The position numbers and the translations under genes are program-made. DNA of 62,260 nucleotides, counting the filler, from Schmidtea nova (Eukaryota): NCBI GenBank assembly GCA_044892505.1. It is 5 parts of 2 records of this genome, joined end to end, with 100 filler letters (N's around TTAATTAATTAA, not from the genome) between each part and the next. Parts side by side here need not be neighbours in the genome. Positions count along the whole stretch, not along the records: positions 16,994 to 43,322 come from CM097882.1; 4 more parts are not named here. One strand, 5' to 3'. Position 1 is the stretch's first letter. Every line of letters begins with the position of its first letter. The notes under the pieces were generated by a model. It saw only the letters and a program-made list of their open reading frames with translations, was not told the origin of the DNA and searched no databases. Positions 16,031-36,734 of this stretch are shown in pieces.

Positions 16031-16993
16031 GAAGAGGCTGAAGTTAAAAGTTGATATTTTGTGCGATGAATGAATTGAGCTACCTTACGTATATTATTTA
16101 CAATATTGGTTTCTTTTAAATAAGTCATGTTGAATTCTGTTTTCATAAATGATTATTTAAAACGTTTATTTAAATAACAATGTTTATTTTGTCTATAACG
16201 CAATCACACAACCAATCGATATTGGCAATGTGTTAACCACAACTAAGGGTAAGTTAACTAAAGGTGAACTACCAACTGATGTTACGGAGAGAACCAATTA
16301 TTCTCTAATAAACTTTGGTGCAAAACTGATTGATTTCTTTACTGATTTCTTTGAAACTCGCTCTAGTTGTTCTTCTGCTTCATCAAATTATTGTTGTATA
16401 AAAGGCAATTAGGAACTAAATTCCAAAATCAAATAAGACTACCAATTAAAGTTGCTAATAATTAAACTATTATCTGCTAACAGTAGCTCCAGAAACATTG
16501 GTGATTCGACAATTATCTTACAATAATGGTTCTGGAGCTCCAAAGAAATCTAATCATCCCCTATGTGACAGACCGACACTGCCTGTCACAATCGGCAATC
16601 TTCTTTTCCTTCGGGGATTTTCATCGATTTTTTGCATAATTAAGAAGATAATTAATTTATTTTTACTTTTGAAATGCAATTACCTGGTGACCATTTAATA
16701 TTGATTTTTAAGTTTAATTAATTTTAAATTAGTTTCACTCTTAATTTAAATATTTAAGTTTTACATACTTTACATTTGAATTTTGCCTTTTTTCATTTTT
16801 ATTTGTATATTTTTGTGCAACCCCAACACATTTTAAAATAAATTTTTGCATTTCAATCAATTTTTTTCAATTTGCATTTTAATTACTTAGTTANNNNNNN
16901 NNNNNNNNNNNNNNNNNNNNNNNNNNNNNNNNNNNNNTTAATTAATTAANNNNNNNNNNNNNNNNNNNNNNNNNNNNNNNNNNNNNNNNNNNN

Positions 16994-19565
16994 GCCCAAC
17001 CGTACAAATTATTAATGTCGATGTAAAGTAGTTCAGTCGTTTCGGAGGATACTGCGTGATGTTTGTTGACAAATGTCAAACCACCACGGATCCCCCCTTC
17101 GAAAAAATTTATACATTTCCATATCCTGGAGCAATTCAATAGGTTCATCCAAGGTAATAAGCGCAGAAGCCCACGACATACCTGGAATCCCCAAGAAATT
17201 CAATGGTTCTAACCTATTATGAGAAATCGACTTGGCTCTAAACTGTTGAAAGAAGTCAGTAAGAAGAAAGACGTCAAGTTTTAAGTATATCATCATGTAG
17301 TCACAAAGAGTTTGACAATTAGTTTCCCTCCAAATAACTAAAGCCTTGTCGTATTCAGCCTGCTTAACACCCTCCCAGATTGGTGGTAATTCATATGTTT
17401 CATTCATGACTTCTAACGATGTCGCAAAATTATAAGAAAAAATACCCTTACAATCAACAATAGTACCAGTGAATTCAGATCTAGTCAAAGGCAAAGAAGT
17501 CAATGTTTTAATCGCGTCATTTAAACTGGAGTTAATAAACTGACAAGAGTCAATGAATTTAATTGTTAAATCACCGACTCTTGCAGACAAAGTAAAGAAT
17601 TTTTCACTCGTAGTTGGAATACAAGATATTTTCCAAGTTGAAAAGTTAGCCAATCCATATTTAAGAATATGGTGCATGTCATACCCTTTTAAGTTATGAA
17701 AAACAACCGGTACTTCCTTACGAATCTGTCTAGTAAGATTACATTTTAAACAAGCAGCACCCAAGAATTCACCAGTGTAATGGTCATGATCTCTAACAGG
17801 ATTAACTAAACGATTTTTACAAAGATAACAAATTGTAGATGAGGCTAAAGATCTTTTATTATCAAATGTCATAAGAAGTGGTTTTTTGTAGTTATTTTTA
17901 TAAAAAGGAAAAACAATTTCTTCACCTATATTGCTAATTTCAGTAATAAAATTAGTAACGCAATCAAGACCTAAGAAACTCTTGTAAATATTTTCACCAG
18001 TAAAGTTATTAGCAAGTAAAAGTCCCGCAGATATAGGTACATGTCTTTGAAAGTACTTATCATCAGAAGGCAAGATTGCCTCAAAATTGGTGTAAACAAC
18101 AAAAGGTGGGGTAATTGTTTTGCCTCAATTACTAAATGTTAAATAAGGGTTTTTAGGTAAAGTATATAGAGTTGTGCCTAATTGATTTTTAGAACACAAC
18201 TCTTGATGACGAAAGAATGAATCTTGATATCTAAACCCATTCAAGCATCGATGACACCATATACTTTGAATACGAGTACCAGATATTGATTTATTGTCAA
18301 GATTTAAAAGTCTATCAAGATTGGTGACTGCTATATAATGAAAAGAGTCACCATTTTGCAAAAGAATCAAATTAATAGGAATTCCGTCTACTACTTTCGA
18401 CCTATGAATTATGTCAATACATGAATGTTTGAAAACTTCAGGCTTAGTGTCTAGAATTCCAGATTCATCATATGACAGTACGTTAATCGCATATCCCGGG
18501 TTTTTAGCTTCAAACTTTGGGATATTGCAAAGACGCATAGGTAAATCAGAAGGACTAAAGTTAACATCTGAAATATTGTAATTACTGGTTCCATGTTTAT
18601 TTTTACGACCAGATATCTCATCATATTTAATAATTACCAAAACAGAATAGATAAAACACAAGTCATCAGAATTATGAACATTTACAACACAATGTTTTGA
18701 CTTTAAAGATTCAGGAGTGTCAATACCACCGTAACCTATCAACCTACTAATCTCAGAAAATTTTGTTAAGATGAAATGAATAATTATCCAATTACTGCCC
18801 CTAGTATTAATTAATGTAATTTTTTTATTAAGAATATTAATGCCATCATCTAAAAAGGTATCTGTGACAGGTTGTGCAGAGTTCAAAATAACTATAGTTT
18901 GAAAAAAACCATCTTTTTCAAACTCGACTTCGATGCAAAATTGTATTTTAACAGTTCCCATCGAATCAATTACGTTATTTAATTTATTAATTAAATTAAC
19001 CGGTACAATCATTGTTTCTAAATTCAAGTTAGTGACAATCATTTTCACTATAGCATGTGATTTATTTAAATCAAATTTAACAATAGGTAAAAGAGAACCA
19101 CCAACCTGTACTTCAGGAACTAAAGAGTATTTATCGTCAGAAATTTTATTAAAAAGAACCACCAATTTGAATATTATAATTAACAATTGAATCAGGAACA
19201 AACCAGTCTACAACCACAAAATCAGAAAGATTATTTATATCAAGATTGTTATCATCAGGAATGATATAATCATCAGAAATTACAACTATATCTGAAGGAA
19301 CAACTGAAGTTACACCTGAAGGAACAATTGAAGAAATATCATCAGAAAGAACTGACTTAATAATTTTGATTGGGTTTGGACTATAGTCATTACATTTTCT
19401 TTTAAGCGGTAATTTAAAAATAGATTTTTTCGATATTTTAAATTGATCTAAATGCTCGCAATGAGTCTTGTAAAAGTAAATATATGAAGAGGATGAAGTA
19501 GATTTGCAAAAAGGGCAAATGTAGTAGTTTTTACAGTTATAAGGGTATGCATAATATCTTTCCAT
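16994..19565 (-). pseudogene. polB: Polinton pPolB copy 2, N-terminal two-thirds: Zn-finger-like segment, OTU-like protease domain, C2H2 finger, exonuclease with EndoVII/HNH insertion, up to motif A
   Basis: Three track ORFs join through a +1 T in a T5 run (~19150), an in-frame TGA (18127-18125) and a +1 T in a T6 run (~17105). Motifs VNVHNSDDLCFIYSVL...FHYIAVTNL, WCHRC...FFRHQELC, degraded ExoI PFVVYTNFE, CYLC...RDHDHYTG...ACLKCN, FHNLKGYD and YIDINNLYGW. 44/67 identical to copy 1 in a hand-aligned block. Confidence 0.92.
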
Positions 19566-19749
19566 TAATTCATGACATTTTACATCATGAATTGTAGAGT
19601 TGCAATAATTTTGATATAAATTGCCTATAAATTTTAAAAATATTATAAAAATAATGATAAAAATTAAGATAAAATATCAATGATGTATATATATTAAGTG
19701 TGTATACACATTCATTTCAAAATATCGTAATATATATTTATTGATTATG

Positions 19750-19812: not shown

Positions 19813-20289
19813 ATGTATCAACTGAAAAGTAAGATTAATTAATTTTAAATGATTATTTTTAAATTTCTTTTTCTAGAATCGAAAAGAATGACAAAACAAG
19901 AAATAATGAAGATTATTCTTGAAGAAAATCCTAATTCTTCATCTAATTTGGTATTGAATCCACCAGTTCAATTCATGCAATACTCGATGGAGTATTTGAA
20001 ATATCCGATCAAATATACATTTAAAGTAAATAATTAAATATTATAAAAATCTAATTAATATTATTTACAGGAACCTGTTACATTGAAACAATGTCAATAC
20101 AATATTCAGGTTGGAAAAATCGGGGAAATTGATAGAAAGAACCTATCTGAAATTTTATTGCTAATCAATAAAGATATTCAATTCAACGTCGAATTTACAT
20201 ATATGAATTGTAAAAAAGAAACAGATTTAGGCAAATTAGATGAAAATTCAATGTATGAAATCAAAATTATGTTACAAGGCTTTAAATAA
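19813..20289 (+). CDS. Three-exon orphan protein, 127 aa, inside the Polinton and divergent from pPolB copy 2
   Basis: Exons 19813-19828, 19877-20025 and 20071-20289. Introns GTAAGA..TTCTAG (48 nt) and GTAAAT..CTAAT..TTACAG (45 nt). Both splices preserve frame and join the two track ORFs: MYQLKKSKRMTKQEIM...YTFK|EPVTLKQC...LQGFK. Confidence 0.7.
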
Positions 20290-20429
20290 ACCGATAATGT
20301 GATAAAACCTATTTGGAAAATTATTGATTTTTCACGAATAAACTCTTGTTTAATTTATTTTTTCTTTAAATATTTTAAAAATGATTTTACTTATTTTGAA
20401 ATAAATGTGTTTAATTCAATTAATTTTTA

Positions 20430-20625
20430 AAAATAATATAAAAATGTGTCAATACTAAAATATATTTAATGAAATAATCATTTATTTAATTGCTAATAAT
20501 ATAAAAATGTGTCAATTATAAAATATATTTAATGAAATAAAAAATAATCATTTATTTAATTGTTAAAAATATAAAAATCTGCCAATTATAAAATATATTT
20601 AATTAAAAAATAATCATTTATTTAA
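20430..20625. repeat. ~62-67 bp AT-rich degenerate tandem repeat x3
   Basis: AATATAAAAAT(G/C)TG(T/C)CAAT...AAAATATATTTAAT...ATAATCATTTATTTAATT repeated three times. Confidence 0.75.
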
Positions 20626-20658
20626 TTTCGTATAATATAAAAATACTCACATTTAATA

Positions 20659-20820
20659 GAAAATTTCTTTGACATATTGTTCATAGATAATTTCTTTAGC
20701 ATATTATTCTTAGAAAATTTCTTTGGCATATTATTCTTAGAAAATTTCTTTGGCATATTGTTCATAGATAATTTCTTTAGCATATTGTTCTTAGAAAATT
20801 TCTTTGACATATTGTTCGAC
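20659..20820. repeat. 27-bp tandem repeat x6
   Basis: GA(A/T)AATTTCTTT(GA/AG/GG)CATATT(G/A)TTC(A/T)TA units starting at 20659, 20686, 20713, 20740, 20767 and 20794. Confidence 0.92.
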
Positions 20821-21089
20821 TTATTTGTTGGCATATTATTCATATTTCTATATCTGTAAATAAAAATTAAAAAATAATCATAAAAAATAAACATGCTTAC
20901 TAAAGTTGGCTTGTTGTTAAAATTGTCATTTATTTAAACGAAATTTTTTAAAAATAGTAATATAATTTAATTTAAAATTACATTAATTTAATTAAATATT
21001 TAAAATATGTATTTAAAAATATTTTCAACTATAATTTAACAAATTAATTCAAACATAAATAGAAAAAGTCGTTTTATAATAAAAAAATT

Positions 21090-21468
21090 TTATTTCATAT
21101 ATTTTAGCCAAGCTAAACAATGTTGTCCACAGGTTTTTGTCATAGGATTTTGATACCGAATTCTGTTATAATCTATTGGTTTTAACATTGACGATAATTT
21201 TTTCAATAATATCGGTGGATAATAAAATCCCATTGGATCAAACACGTATATTTTATCGGGTTTATTATAAATTGCAAGCCAATGTTCACCTTTGAGATTT
21301 GATGATTGAATATTGACAATCAATGCTTTATTCACATCTATATACGGTATTTTATCTAGTGGAAAAACTCCTAGAAATTCCGATCCAATCAATTTTCTAG
21401 CAATCTGATCTACCTGAATTGAACTAAAATCAATAAAATTTAATTATTAAAAATAAATCTTACTTCAT
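21090..21468 (-). CDS. Adenain-like (adenoviral-type) cysteine protease of the Polinton; spliced start, ~112 aa
   Basis: FLGVFPLD...GEHWLAIY...FDPMG...YQNPMTKTCGQHC supplies the catalytic H, D, Q and C. No in-frame ATG, but ATG AA (21468-21464) plus intron GTAAGA..TTTTAG (21463-21424) plus T gives MNSIQVDQIARKLIG. Confidence 0.88.
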
Positions 21469-21538
21469 TTACTTTTTTAATTTATTAAAAATAAATCTTA
21501 CTTCATTTACCTTTTTAATTAATTAAAATTAGTTTATA

Positions 21539-22755
21539 TTAAACGAGTATTGTTCGATTAGCTGTAATTTGTAATTCCTTTTCAAAAACTCCATATACAA
21601 TTACAGAAACTGATTCAGTCAATGATGTACCAAATTTAATATCAAGTCTTAGATTACCTTGTTGAGGTAATTGACTTTGATTTAGGACAAAATCTGGAGC
21701 CAAAACGAAGGTGAAAAAAGGATATTTAGTTTTCCAATCTGATAAAGAAATACCACAATTCATACTCTTATTCAGGTAACCAAGGTTACGGATAATAGAT
21801 TGCATATAACTAGTACTACAATTATCATTTTCAAAATCTTGAGAATAATTTTCACGATAATCACTTCCTTTCGATAAAGTTAATTATTTGACATTAAAAT
21901 GATCGTAAATAGAATAAGTTTCAGTAAAAGAACCACTATGTCTTTTATTTCTTTGAAATGCTACAAGAATAAAGTTTGGTAATCGTCTATCACCACAGAT
22001 TTGTTCCTTATTAAATGAAGAAGAACCCATTGGCAATGTAAATTCTTATTTCTTATTGGATAAATTGCATTTCTTGTACCAAGTCCAATTTGATGCCCAG
22101 CCAAAACTGATGGTTCAACTCGAACTCTTCTAACCATTAATTTTGCCTCTAAAAATTCAATTATAGGTTCAATTTTTGTACATGTTAAACTATTGGATGG
22201 ATTTGATCTCGTCAATTTAATTTGAACACTAACACCAGGTAATAAATACTTGGGTTGTTCAATGAAATCGAAATGTAATGGTGAACAAATTGAAAATGGT
22301 TTTGATTTCGCAATCCATGCTTTTATAGTAAGATCATGGTCATTGTATCCCATTGGAGTTAAAGATGTGTGTTTTGTATCACTATTGTAGTTGAGAATAG
22401 TTTCAATCATGGCTTTGTGTGTAAATGTATCATTTCCTCCTTCAACTTTAGTAGAATTGAAAATTAATTCGGCTTCTTTAAAAAGAGTTTGGAAAAAGAA
22501 ATTGTTGGGAGTAACATCAGCATCCAATCCTAAATTTTCACCCGATTTGTTTACAACTTTGACCTGAAGAGATAGTAAAGTATCGTTCAAATCTAAATAT
22601 TCAGTTTGAGATCCGTTGATGTAAAATTGAATAGATGATGTCCCAGCATCTGTAATTGAATTTGTTGGGTAAATATCTTCAAATGCACCATGTTCAATTA
22701 CTGCTTGTGGAGATGGTCTATCAAAAAGACATAATTCAGATTTTGCACTAATCAT
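21539..22755 (-). pseudogene. Polinton major capsid protein (double jelly-roll, PY/hexon-like) with one frameshift and one stop
   Basis: N-terminus KSELCLFDRPSPQAVIEHG...IQFYING..EYLDL; C-terminus GNLRLDIKFG...VIVYGVFEKELQITANR. After a frameshift at ~22045 the frame FTLPMG..RLPNFILVAF..(TAA 21886-21884)..MQSIIRN links the two track ORFs. Confidence 0.88.
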
Positions 22756-23159
22756 TTTTCAAAAATTGTTCCATATCCTTTCATACTTTTGTTTATATGT
22801 TTCTTCATATTTCTTTTACGTTTAAGAATTCCGCCATTTTGTTTATTTTCAGTTTTATTTTCGTTAAACACATCAGTCACTTTACTAATTACTTGTGGCA
22901 AATGATGAATCACATCGGGTAATGAATCTTTAATTTCAGAAATGGCATTGGATTTTAGTGCAGGTAAAATCTTTGAATTATTATTTATCACATCATTGGC
23001 AGTTTTCATACCAAAATTTCCAATACGTCTAAGAATTGGTAATGCAAATCTACCTATCGTTTTCAACCAACCAGTTCCATATTGCTTACCTACAAAATAC
23101 GGTAATTCTCCACCTGATTGACTGTTGCTATAGAAACTGATAATATCTGGATTATTCAT
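22752..23159 (-). CDS. Small basic core/membrane-active protein (adenovirus pVI/pX-like; Polinton QxGxG family), 135 aa
   Basis: QSGG and QYGTG motifs, then amphipathic WLKTIGRFALPILRRIG and basic C-terminus QNGGILKRKRNMKK. Overlaps penton B by 8 nt and the MCP start by 4 nt. Confidence 0.7.
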   Translation of the reverse strand: MNNPDIISFYSNSQSGGELPYFVGKQYGTGWLKTIGRFALPILRRIGNFGMKTANDVINNNSKILPALKSNAISEIKDSLPDVIHHLPQVISKVTDVFNENKTENKQNGGILKRKRNMKKHINKSMKGYGTIFEK

Positions 23160-24174
23160 TTATTTTACGGAAATGTAATGTCAAGTAAGTTTTGTCTTCT
23201 TTTGCAAATTTAACTATTTTTCCACTGTCATCACGAATATTGATTTCAATATTGTTTATATATGTGGAACTGACCGGTAAATACATTAGATTTTTCTCAA
23301 CAATTTGAACCAAATCACCATTTTTATGTTTTTCAACCCAAACACATTTCAATAGGGGAACTGACATGTCACCAACAAGAATTGGTTGAATAATATTCGT
23401 ATAGATGAACATTTGTTGATGAAGTTTTAAAACTTGTGGATAATATACGCCATCAATAATTTTGTCAAAGAATTCTTGTTCAACTAATCCTAACGAATTT
23501 GCTAAATTCCTACTAAATTTTACACTAGTTATATCATCTTCAAGAATTAATTTAATTAATTTTCCTTCTTTAATATCAATCACTTTAAATGGATGTGGAT
23601 AAAAAGTTTCAATTTGATCAAATAATTCAGTAAGATTATTTATTATTAAATCGTCTTTGAAATTATCTGTGTATTCAACAGGATAAGTATAAGTTATAGT
23701 AAATCGTATAGTATCATCAAGTTTTTTATTTTCATTTGCTGGAATTTTAATTTTGTTTAATTCATCATAAAATGTCACAGCTTTTTCTTGAAACCCTAAT
23801 TTTTTAGCTTCATCAACACTATCAAATATTATTTAAAATGGAAAATATTTACAATTTACATTTAAAATATTGCCGTCAATATACATCAAATAATAATTAG
23901 AATCGTGACTTATATCATATTCTTTCTTTTGTTGGTTAAAATTGAAATATTCATAACTAAAATGTAATTCATTTCTAATAAATTTTATACTTGAACTATT
24001 ATAAAACGGAAATTCATTGTATACAAAAGTAAAATCCATAAGAGCAACTTCCCAACTACCATCCAAATAAATTGGGTTTTGATATTCAACATTGAATTTT
24101 CCAGCTTTATTATTAGGATGTGTCAATGGGCAAGAATTGCTTGGTAAATTAACATAAAAATCTTTTTTAATCAT
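23152..24174 (-). pseudogene. Polinton penton/minor capsid protein B (340 codons, one premature TAA)
   Basis: N-terminus FYVNLPSNS...NKAGKFNVEYQNPIYLDGSWEVAL; C-terminus MFIYTNII...VGD...PLL...YLPV...INNIEINIRDDSG...LTLHFRK. ORFs 23833-24174 and 23152-23778 are in frame across TAA 23835-23833, which aligns with Lys in penton A. Confidence 0.88.
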
Positions 24175-24990
24175 TTATTTTACGAAAATGTAGAGTCAAA
24201 TGAATCTTTGTATCTTTTGAAAATTTAATTAATTTTCCACTGTCATCACGAATATTGATTTCAATGTTGTTTATAGTTGAAGTTGAAATCGGTAAATACA
24301 TTGGATTCTTTATTTCAATTTGTACAACTTCACCTTGGTCATATTTCTTGATCCAAATTGATTTTAGGAGGGTAACTCGTACATCTCCAACAGTCATGGT
24401 TCAATAATGTTGCTGTAAATGAACATTTGCTGATTAAGTTGTAAAATTTTGGGGATTTTTACACCAATTATTTCTGTATCAGTATATGTTTGTTTCTGTA
24501 GACCCAGAGATTTGGTTAAATTTGAATCAAAAGTAATTTTTGAAATATTATCCTGAAGAATAATTTTAACCAATTCATTATTGACAAGTTTCATTTCTTT
24601 AAATGGAGATGGATTAATTTTCATTAAATATCCTTGCAATTCCGGTAATGACGTTATGAATAATTCTTCTTGAAAATAATAATCATTAACAGTTTTAATG
24701 TCATAATTTAATAAAATTCCAAATTGTTCAAGACTATTATCATTCGTGAATTTTGGTAATTTTAAACGATAATGATCATTTTCACTTGTAATTGTGATAT
24801 TTGTCAATCCAAAACTTTTTGCATGTTCAAGATCTGGAAATGTAATTTTAAATGGAACATGTGGGCAAACAATCACTAAATAATTATATTTTTCAATAAA
24901 TACATCAGTGTCTGAACTAGGTTGAGAAACTATAACTTGAAATGTTTTATTTTGATTATTAATTCTCAAATAACTAATTTCTTGAATTTC
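24167..24990 (-). pseudogene. Polinton penton/minor capsid protein A (N-terminus lost at Penelope insertion; one frameshift)
   Basis: MFIYSNIIEP|(fs at 24396)TVGDVRVTLL...MYLPIS..INNIEINIRDDSG...LTLHFRKIND; colinear with penton B. Confidence 0.85.
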
Positions 24991-24996
24991 TCCTAT

Positions 24997-25903
24997 TAGG
25001 AGAAAGAAAAAGAGCCATAAGAAACTGTTCAGACGCAAACAAAATACAAGAAACATTAGAAAACTTCAAAATACGATTCCTCCAAAATGGATACCCTGAA
25101 GACTTTGTAAAGAAACACTTCCTTAACGAACCATACCACAATAAACGCAACAATAGAAAACGCCAGAAACACAATAACAATAACAAACACACAACATATC
25201 TAAGATTACCTTTCCTAAATGACACTACAGCCAACAAAATCACCAACATTTTTAATCAAACAGATTTGCCTATCCACATCCGTCCAACGTTCATAACCTC
25301 CGCACCGTTAAAATCACAACTCCGAAAGCCACCAATTTCCAACATCTCCAAACATAAATGTCTTTGCCGTTCCACAACCCGATGCTTTTGCTTTTCCAAA
25401 AATATAGTATATAAACTTTCTTGCCAAAAATGTGACGCTACTTACATAGGAGAAACACATAGAACTTTTCGCACCCGACTTAATGAACACACTAAAATCA
25501 AAACCAGTAATTATTACGAACACTGGGAGAAAGTACATAAAACAACTCCATCTATAGAAGAAACAAAATGCCAGATTCTACAAGAGGGATTCAAAAATTC
25601 ATTACAAAGATTAGCTTCCGAGACTTTTTTCATAAAAAAATACAAACCGTCCATCAACATTCAATTCGCACAAAAAAATTAAAATAAATTTTTTCATCCA
25701 ATAAAATCATTATAAAATATTAAAAAAATAATTAAGGCTACTATTTAGGATTAAGTAAATATAACGATAGAAATACACACTTGATAAAGGCTGTGCCGAA
25801 ATATTGTGTTATTGTTTATAAAAAAAATTTGATCTATAGTCATTATGAGAATTATTGATAATAATAATAAAAAAAGATCAAAGGTGAAAAAAGATAATTA
25901 TGA

Positions 25904-26390: not shown

Positions 26391-26470
26391 AAAAAAATTT
26401 TTTTTGGGGGGGTTAAAAAGTTTTTTTAGGGGGGTCTGTTCCTGTTCTTGGGCGCTCCCCCTACTCTACT
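26391..26470 (+). mobile_element. Candidate Polinton terminus 2 (minus strand reads 5'-AGTAGAGTAGGGGG)
   Basis: ...GCTCCCCCTACTCTACT ends exactly where pPolB copy 3 similarity begins; resembles the 10970 terminus. Confidence 0.55.
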
Positions 26471-27243
26471 AGTAGTCTCGATAAGAATTATTATGAGCTT
26501 TTAAATAATAGTCTGTACGGAAAACAGTCGAAAATTTGGAGAAAAGAATGAATTTGAGACTGTGTAATACTGAACAGAAAATGATAACATATGCTTCGAA
26601 ACCAACTTTTCAAAGAAGTATCAAGATTGATGATGATTTAATAACTGCCTTACTAAATAAAGAATCTATTTGTTTGAATAGACCTAGTTATATAGGTCAA
26701 TCAGTTTTGGATTTATAGAAACTTCGGATGTATTAACTACAATATCTGGAGTTAGCTAAATATCGAGCACAATTCGGTTGCGAAATAAATATTGTTGCTG
26801 GAGATACCGATAGCTTTTTCTTGGAATGTAAAAATGTTAAATTAGATACATTATTACTGGCAATGGTTAATGATAATCTCTTGGATACATTTAATTATCC
26901 TTCGGAACATCCACTCTTTTCAGGAAAATTGGATTCGATTATCGGAAAGCTCAAGGATGAAAGTAAAGGCGATGGAAATAAAGAATGGGTATTTTTAAGA
27001 CCAAAATGTTACAGTTTGTTAGGGGAAAGAAAGCTTAAAAGCTAAAGAAATAACATTGAATGGTACTGACATCAAAAACAGTCGTATAATAACAACAAAA
27101 GGTTTATAGTACACAATGTCGAATTGGTACACAAAATCATCAATTATTAGTTTCTAACAGTCGAAAGTTGCTTTAACAAATGCCAATGATAAAAGAAATT
27201 AGATTAAAAAGAATAAAAGCCCTGCATATGGGTACTGTGGTGA
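26465..27243 (+). pseudogene. polB: Polinton pPolB copy 3, C-terminal part (motif B to end), degenerate
   Basis: STSSLDKNYYELLNNSLYGK(fs)TVENLEKRMNLRLCN...RPSYIGQSVLDL*..AGDTDSFF...FLRPKCYS...NHQL...DKR..AYG, colinear with copy 1. Several stops and frameshifts. Confidence 0.92.
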
Positions 27244-35072: not shown

Positions 35073-36040
35073 TTGGGCAATGCTTATTATGAAGTAGAAC
35101 TTGACGATACTTTAAAATTGAAAAAAGCATTCTCCACAAAAAGAAAGCAATATTACTTCAGCAGAATGACATTTGGAATAGTCATCACACTAGCAACATT
35201 TCAAAGACTTATGAACTTAATTTCTGAAGAATTAAATTGGAAAGGAACACTTGTATATCTGGATAATATCTTTATATTTTCAAAGACATTTAATGAACAT
35301 CATAGAACCATTGAAAATGGTTTGAAAAAAAATAAATTTGCAAATTTTAAAATAACTCCATCAAAATGTCATTTCAAGAGGAAAGAAGTAAATATTGTTG
35401 ACCATATTATCGGAAATATTTGAATACGTTGTGGGTGAAAGCAAGATTGAAACTAATAAAAATATTAGAGACCTAAATGCTTAAAAAACACGATAAAAAG
35501 ATTTGTGATGTTTGACAAGCCTGTGAATACTCTCATAAAAGAAATGTGGATACAACAAACCAAAAAAGAAATAATATGCAAAAGGTATTCGAAATTATTT
35601 GAAACAATTTATGTAGATTTTTGTGGTCCCTTAGAACTTGTAATGAGTAAGATATATTCTAAGATATATTCTTGGGCTTATAAATCATTATAGTAAATTT
35701 ATTTTTCTACATGCAGTGAAATGAAAAGATGAAAAAACAGTGGTAAGAGTACTGAAAGTAGAGTGGATAAGGAAGTTTAGAGCACCAAGGATAATAAACT
35801 GTGACAGAAGTAAGTCATTTGAATCAAAGCTATTGAAAGACTTTGCAAAATTCCACAATATTGAAATTAATTATTCAGGTCCATATCATCATTCAGTAAA
35901 TGGACAGATTGAGAGACAATTTCGTACAATTAAAGATGGAAAACCGATAAAAATTAAAAATAAAAGACATAAATCATGGGTAAATGTTCTTCTCGAAGTA
36001 CAGTTTATGAGTAATTCTACTTTTCAAAAATCTATTTAGA
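35073..36040 (+). pseudogene. Degenerate, internally deleted Ty3/Gypsy pol (RT and integrase fragments)
   Basis: AFST..QYYFSRMTFG....ATFQRLM...VYLDNIFIFS..SKCHF (RT); IYVDFCGP, IINCDRSKSF, GPYHHSVNGQIER (IN). RNase H is missing. Confidence 0.85.
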
Positions 36041-36734
36041 AGACTCCAGCTGAAATGGTTTGTGAAAAAATGATTTATAGTGAAAAGTCCTTAGAGATAT
36101 GCGAAGAAAAAATATCAATCAGAAGACAAATCGTGAAATTCAAATTAGAGATTACGAATCAATTTTGGAATTCCTTTTCCTTTTTGTATTTATTAATTAA
36201 AAATGACCTTTTCTTGTTAATTAATCGACTTTTTTTATATCACTGCCACCTTCTCATTTCTCAATTTTTGCTCTTCCTTTCCTCCTTTGCCGAATTTCAA
36301 ACATCAAATTATTTACTCTGTCTATCTTCCCCTAATCATTTTACTTATTTGTGATAATATTTAATTTATTAATTAGGTTTCCTCAACAAATTAAATATTT
36401 TGATTATAAAATAATATAAAATTTAGTAAAATTAAAATTTTTAAATACTCTACGAAAATGCAAGAATTCAAAATGTCACTTGTTTAATGTCAAACTTTTT
36501 GTTTCAATTTATTTTTACTGTAATTGTAGTTTATGAAGACTCATTAAAAAAAAGAAAAACGGTATATGAAATTAAAAAAATGCAAAATATTCTTTTTTTT
36601 TTATCTTTTTGCACTTTCTGGTAGAAACTTTAGATGAAATAATTTTATAACAATAAATTAACAATAAATAACTGCAAATGAAGCATATGTATATAAAAGA
36701 TTACTTACTTTTTTCTGTGAATGGTACTGTAACA

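Follow-up and report, generated by a model that had tools for sequence, protein, structure and literature searches.

A predicted short GT-AG intron, inherited in codon 2 of the protease gene in a clade of Polintons

The protease gene of a clade of Polinton-type elements, one decayed copy of which lies in the window (the whole stretch of Schmidtea nova DNA analysed, 62,260 nucleotides), most probably carries an inherited short GT-AG intron in its second codon, predicted to be spliced constitutively by the host and to be dispensable. On the minus strand of the window, exon 1 in its proximal copy consists of the ATG and 2 further nucleotides (21464-21468, ATG at 21468-21466), a 5-nt exon found also in 14 relatives. 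A 40-nt intron of spliceosomal type (21424-21463, GTAAGA..TTTTAG, donor at 21463, AG ending at 21424) follows in phase 2 of codon 2, and exon 2 (21090-21423) is open for 110 codons. The intron contains 10% GC vs 30% in exon 2 and displays U2-type features, namely GT-AG ends, a donor consensus and a pyrimidine-rich 3' end. The gene is recognised as a protease (adenain) by a PF00770 match with a score at the cut-off (E=2.4e-4), by a profile match to the adenovirus protease 1avp (E=0.0014) and by the invariance of H, D, Q and C among 10 aligned sequences.

An earlier sequence-only reading had held that this frame lacks an ATG unless the 40-nt intron is removed, and its coordinates hold: the unspliced stop-to-stop frame (21090-21443, minus) reaches a Met only at residue 71, past the catalytic His, and predicted removal of the segment between donor 21463 and AG 21424 joins the ATG plus 2 nt to a family-type protease start. 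Retention of the intron results in a two-codon frame followed by a stop, both in the window and in all 14 intron-carrying relatives (Met-Lys-stop, or Met-Glu-stop in L018), so a protease begun at that ATG needs splicing; the stop itself is given directly by the phase-2 GTAA/GTGA donor. The same reading had noticed a 38-bp duplication offering an alternative intron of 78 nt. It was recovered as two tandem units of 38 nt with ATG and donor (21520-21483 and 21482-21445, minus, 37/38 identical), whose distal ATG plus 2 nt (21502-21506, ATG from 21506) is followed by a donor at 21501 that permits a 78-nt intron to acceptor 21424. The duplication is absent from the 14 carriers and is seen only in the broken copy of the window.

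Relatives were collected by a metagenome scan with protease alignment, which confirmed 57 loci among 163 pattern matches. Of these 53 are scorable, L017, L019, L022 and L055 being cut at the site (L017 still shows the acceptor); a viral contig collection yielded only 2 distant loci (29-41%), which were left out of the analysis. Conservation of the intron in related proteases, proposed earlier as a check, is borne out by 14 of the 53 scorable loci, which have a GT..AG intron of 37-47 nt at exactly the same phase-2 site; the other 39 have an ordinary in-frame ATG. All 14 carriers follow the pattern ATG-NN|GTR..YAG|Y, with the third base of codon 2 coming immediately after the AG, and after intron removal this codon reads Asn (13 loci) or Asp (1), in agreement with intronless relatives (M-D-S in L008, L013 and L023). 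An in-frame ATG stands 17-26 codons before the G-V-F motif in 37 of the 39 intronless loci, and in the remaining two, L044 and L050, where the motif search missed G-V-F, an in-frame Met is visible. The site accordingly presents exact presence or absence at a homologous coding position with the frame kept, the intronless loci including L008 and L013 of the same clade. The counter-case named by the earlier reading, relatives with an ATG near position 21434 and no conserved GT-AG, did not turn up among close relatives, and a separate scan of 38 loci outside the clade revealed no ATG-plus-intron leading into the protease.

Donors among the carriers are GTAAGT (8), GTAATT (3), GTGAGT (2) and GTAAGA (1), and the intron lengths cover all three remainders modulo 3. 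The window and the 14 carriers make up about 10 lineages at 46-70% protein identity, all of which keep the intron's position, phase, splice signals and low GC, and between which intron interiors are mostly 47-70% identical, in AT-rich DNA and with no conserved interior seen. Within the pair L003/L004, identity reaches 94% in exon 2, where 12 codon differences are synonymous and 2 non-synonymous, vs 72% in the intron interior; two of the five close pairs (L006/L007 and L009/L037) have identical interiors and therefore show no faster intron change. The range of hosts may be small, since many of the 14 carriers are near-duplicates or have contig names with common prefixes. Among close protein-only matches, P0002, P0003, P0013, P0014 and P0027 have Ser where the acceptor would read through, preceded in four of them by low-complexity read-through, and the UniParc entry P0045 begins with M-N-S-I.

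How often such patterns arise by chance was gauged in the window itself. Under strict criteria, the 62 kb yielded the four proposed introns, other ways of pairing donor and acceptor at the protease site, and 2 look-alikes within a repeat element. Relaxed criteria, applied to three pieces of the window (32 kb), gave 17 intron-like patterns vs 16 expected, and an excess over chance within the window was rejected; with DNA so AT-rich, the pattern by itself is weak evidence. In the 14 carrier loci, the same pattern occurs at only 16 of 1162 (1.4%) arbitrary YAG[T/C] sites. It is the comparative evidence from relatives by which the protease intron is real, its splicing being predicted. Separately, two tandem intron-like units of 41 and 46 nt with 11-nt spacers and no visible coding frame were observed at 39372-39469 (minus), inside an inverted-repeat element at about 39060-39770.

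The descent of the intron was followed on two trees of about 115 columns each. The protease tree comes from a quick search on 72 rows, from which L055, L001 and L002 were left out and in which L017, L019 and L022 are unlabelled; the capsid tree, also a quick search, uses the C-terminal part in 38 rows (37 loci with at least 70 aligned residues and the window). Both unite all the carriers and the intronless pair L008/L013 in a single group (SH-aLRT 87 for the protease, 98 for the capsid), and on each of them 2 intron changes are needed vs 13.2 (protease) and 10.3 (capsid) in shuffles. The simplest reading of both trees is one gain followed by one loss, with the intron probably gained once in the clade ancestor and dispensable thereafter. 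The nesting of L008/L013 has a support of only 81-83, and with quick trees of this length the gain may also have come after these two branched off.

Capsid, integrase and polymerase frames are unbroken in some carriers; the intron is thus inherited rather than a product of decay, and it is, as far as open frames tell, a trait of apparently intact elements. L015 has open frames for integrase, two penton-like proteins, capsid and a 1304-codon polB; L007 and L018 contain open frames of sizes matching these core genes. Integrases of the relatives are of the rve type (E=1e-12 in L015) with a chromodomain-like end, and a partial frame without Pfam match in L007 is presumably ATPase-like.

The window is a concatenation of five contigs joined by N-flanked 12-base linkers at 7221-7320, 16894-16993, 43323-43422 and 55358-55457, so neighbourhood across these points carries no meaning. 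The protease and an orphan gene both lie on contig 16994-43322, within a Polinton-type array of polB with a zinc-finger-like 5' part, the orphan gene on the opposite strand, protease, major capsid gene, a small conserved gene and two penton-like genes. The adintovirus-type genes and the short, AT-rich introns suggest an invertebrate as host. This copy is decayed, with stops or frame changes in the capsid, penton-like and polB frames; an interpretation of the capsid and penton breaks as introns was considered and rejected. The protein-primed polymerase gene (16994-19676, minus), interrupted by stops and frame changes and truncated at the contig end, matches PF03175 (protein-primed type B DNA polymerase, E=1.7e-9 at 17210-18124). 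The major capsid gene (21539-22755, minus) has a frame change near 22040 and a stop at 21884-21886, and is 51-54% identical to the open 426-codon frame of L015. It is preceded by the small gene (22752-23159, minus), conserved in relatives and which we take to be PZ-like, and the array continues with two conserved genes at 23152-25065 (minus), both broken in the window and presumably penton-like (minor capsid). Capsid and penton-like genes match in size and order between window and relatives; the Pfam search gave no match for them, and their labels are tentative ones based on motifs. A search with the relatives' frames found no close integrase or ATPase match in the window, the only integrase matches being of 26-28% at 35662 and 38146, of which the former adjoins retrotransposon-like pieces. 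The element is cut by the contig end at 16994, and the partial loci L015 and L003 are without a long inverted repeat.

Other features of the window were recorded alongside this array. Two more polB fragments, at 7321-9267 (plus) and 26465-27235 (plus), belong to related but distinct elements, with 66-72% identity to others. A frame on the opposite strand (24978-25682, plus) abuts a penton-like gene, has no Pfam match and presumably resembles the endonuclease at the C-terminal end of a Penelope-like retroelement. Positions 6074-6294 match 36169-36390, but this match was rejected as a Polinton gene, being without a visible coding frame and adjoining retrotransposon-like pieces. Directly downstream of the protease, a Lys/Asn/Met-rich frame (20622-20933, minus) sits on a 27-nt tandem repeat and has no match in the related loci; a 47-nt intron-like stretch, possibly a 5' UTR intron, ends about 10 nt before its first repeat Met. 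The frame of the zinc-finger-like 5' part of polB (19149-19676, minus) opens behind an acceptor-like AG, with no ATG close to that point; a 4-nt first exon is possible at 19711 but would require an 83-nt intron with a weak donor (19707-19625, minus). In L016 the homologous gene shows ATG|GT.

The protease intron is not the only candidate of its kind in the clade. Intron-like segments number 51 vs 14.6 expected in 19 clade loci, and 8 vs 6.5 in the other 38 loci. Chains of three to five short in-frame introns are predicted in the zinc-finger/polB 5' region (L003:1590-2244, L004:1483-1993, L008:3274-2543 on the minus strand): five in L003 join the zinc-finger start to the polB frame, with three of the sites recurring in L004, L008 contains three, and L016 a single one immediately behind the ATG, while the region is a single open frame in L015. 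Accessory genes of relatives likewise contain such introns; the inspected integrase, penton and capsid frames are unsplit, the short introns lying in 5' and accessory regions. Two sub-lineages show further intron-like segments around the protease: one near the 3' end of the gene (L006:5337-5384 and L007:5337-5385, 48-49 nt), the other, whose scorable members lack the protease intron, after its stop (L022:305-357, L008:1835-1880, L013:683-730), directly following an ATG in L022 and L008.

In the window itself, short introns had also been proposed for the orphan gene and for a RING gene. The orphan gene (19813-20289, plus) would have 127 codons if spliced, in exons 19813-19828, 19877-20025 and 20071-20289, with predicted introns of 48 nt in phase 1 (19829-19876) and 45 nt in phase 0 (20026-20070). 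Both segments were found where they had been placed; they hold 9-12% GC vs 26-28% in exons 2 and 3, and stops fall inside them and not in the exons. Homology does not add to this: exon 3 has no homologue among proteins of 39-126 aa (best Atlas score 0.83, a lead only), exons 2 and 3 have none in the fetched related loci, and since both introns are multiples of three, the gene may also be a decayed single frame. The gene RING1 (950-356, minus, ATG at 950, PF13920 E=2e-9) has a predicted phase-0 intron of 46 nt (872-917) after a 33-nt first exon. This intron, too, lies where it was proposed, but an assignment of RING1 to the Polinton is not supported: in this concatenation of contigs it sits on contig 1-7220, separate from that of the Polinton, and none of 434 frames from 21 related loci matches that contig. 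For RING1 exon 2, none of 52 candidates passed (best Atlas score 0.86). The predicted orphan and RING1 introns are nevertheless considered probable, because in size, composition, signals and TATA-like spacing they are the same as the protease intron. RING1 and a divergent second gene, RING2 (3882-4412, plus), are 38% identical; the RING2 frame has no ATG at its start and is preceded by an acceptor-like AG. The UniParc protein P0045 combines a protease start with a RING-like end, a hint of RING genes neighbouring the protease in some relative.

A TATA-like motif at 21532-21538 (minus) precedes the distal ATG by 31 nt, and its position suggests a promoter role. In 13 of the 14 carriers, ATAAA stands 31-38 nt ahead of the protease ATG, with L016 at 46 nt; among the 39 intronless loci, 24 have it 68-83 nt ahead; in the window a like motif is spaced by 31 nt from the distal protease ATG, 35-38 from that of the orphan, 36 from that of RING1 and 41 from that of the capsid gene. 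In 14/14 carriers the capsid stop and the protease ATG are -1 to 8 nt apart, with A/GATAAA about 25-35 nt ahead of that stop. It may be proposed that the motif, mostly within the last codons of the capsid gene, directs transcription by host polymerase II. The RNA would have a very short leader and a tiny first exon, and its intron, close to the cap, would be removed constitutively by the host spliceosome to give the family-type start. The intron would likely have persisted because an intron of host size is cheap to carry and may aid expression. The motif spacing of the distal ATG in the window is typical of the clade, so the 78-nt intron may be the one used; otherwise the distal ATG may be a two-codon upstream frame in this broken copy. 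Dependence of the start on host splicing, as first claimed, stands in part: retention stops are present throughout, but a strict dependence is weakened by three of the 14 carriers (L012, L014 and L016), which have an in-frame upstream ATG without splicing, and by L008/L013, which do without the intron.

A more far-reaching interpretation would see here an old, intact animal-type Polinton lineage whose protease came to depend on the spliceosome, either to gate the passage from quiet integration to particle maturation or to provide a mark of 'self' against the silencing of intronless RNA, with the capsid genes intron-free; this we consider unlikely. Unlikely, too, is a regulated gate in the strict sense, in which retention would switch the protease, and hence virion maturation, off and on. 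The shared retention stop, the keeping of the intron site across 46-70% protein identity and the lack of introns in the inspected capsid and penton frames are what it would lead one to expect. Yet the stop is automatic with a phase-2 GTAA/GTGA donor, the donors are near consensus around interiors that show no conservation, L008/L013 have no intron at this site, and polB 5' regions and accessory genes have introns too. The regulatory switch for virion maturation of the sequence-only reading is unsupported, in view of the same intronless pair, the three carriers with an upstream ATG, the restriction of the duplication to the broken copy of the window, the lack of a shown link between RING1 and a Polinton, and the absence of a homologue of the orphan gene in the searches made.

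The tight spacing of capsid stop, A/GATAAA and protease ATG in all 14 carriers might alternatively indicate that the intron is mainly an overlapping 3'-end signal of the capsid gene, with ATAAA as poly(A) signal and the U-rich intron as its downstream element. This appears improbable: in 24 of the 39 intronless loci the motif, 68-83 nt ahead of the ATG, lies further inside the capsid frame than a poly(A) signal could, a similar motif precedes the orphan gene (-35 to -38), for which no same-strand ORF of 70 or more codons is listed just upstream, and L008/L013 retain the motif without the intron. The absence of any intron, with an AT-rich spacer or decay and translation from a non-ATG codon or an internal Met, is very improbable, for although most genes of the window copy are broken, its relaxed scans are not above chance and L018 has a Met about 9 codons in, ATG-NN-GT and AG-Y flank the segment at one site in 14 loci with differing lengths and interiors, and the window frame has no Met ahead of the catalytic His. 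Constitutive removal of an inherited and dispensable intron thus stays the preferred reading.

If so, the intron implies nuclear, host-polymerase transcription of a virion gene, and a single site that has persisted through such protein divergence, with one probable loss, marks vertical descent cleanly. Since an intact Polinton is commonly defined by core frames without introns (PMC8097293, in its accessible part), this lineage would be scored as broken or be given wrong protease starts; protein collections show such read-through and truncated protease starts. On a small scale, the clade could also serve to study how a virus-like genome gains and loses introns, and whether such elements avoid silencing with the help of introns, for which HUSH in human cells provides a precedent (PMC8770142, as far as the available text goes), a human system that may not apply to the host here.

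Against known systems, this Polinton clade, in which codon 2 of a core virion gene holds an inherited intron and further micro-introns show a 5' bias, is apparently an unreported variation on intronless Polintons, as judged by sequence comparison. The literature searched, outside which Repbase, subscription papers and supplements may hold such models, contains no description of a conserved Polinton protease intron, and a word search of the accessible text of PMC10748475, PMC11296320, PMC12220804 and PMC6431247 gave no spliceosomal introns in Polinton core genes. Animal Polintons/Mavericks (adintoviruses, PMC8502044), in the portion available, resemble the present clade in having adenain, pPolB (PF03175) and capsid genes in a compact array. 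Their core genes are intronless where the consulted sections describe them, with eight intronless frames in intact vertebrate Mavericks (PMC8097293) and an intronless core beside intron-bearing cargo genes in a nematode Maverick (bioRxiv 2022.07.12.499685), whereas the window clade has a conserved intron in a core gene. The nematode element shares with this clade intron-bearing genes that travel inside a Maverick, but the excerpt places its introns in host-derived cargo near a terminal repeat, and here they are in a core virion gene and the polB 5' region. Dinoflagellate maverick-polinton-like elements with introners (PMC11957031) also have spliceosomal introns inside polinton-like elements; in the available text, introners are multi-copy transposons mostly inserted after integration, in contrast to the AT-rich segments of 37-47 nt at one inherited site, whose interiors in different lineages are mostly 47-70% alike in a comparison covering the protease site only (introner copies elsewhere lie outside its scope). 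Finally, start-codon introns of cellular genes (PMC1626468) likewise lie beside the ATG of a short gene, and the ATG|GT phase-0 introns in other genes of L016, L022 and L008 are like them. According to the part of that source consulted, start-codon introns peak at phase 0 after codon 1, whereas the protease intron is in phase 2 of codon 2 and belongs to a virus-like element.
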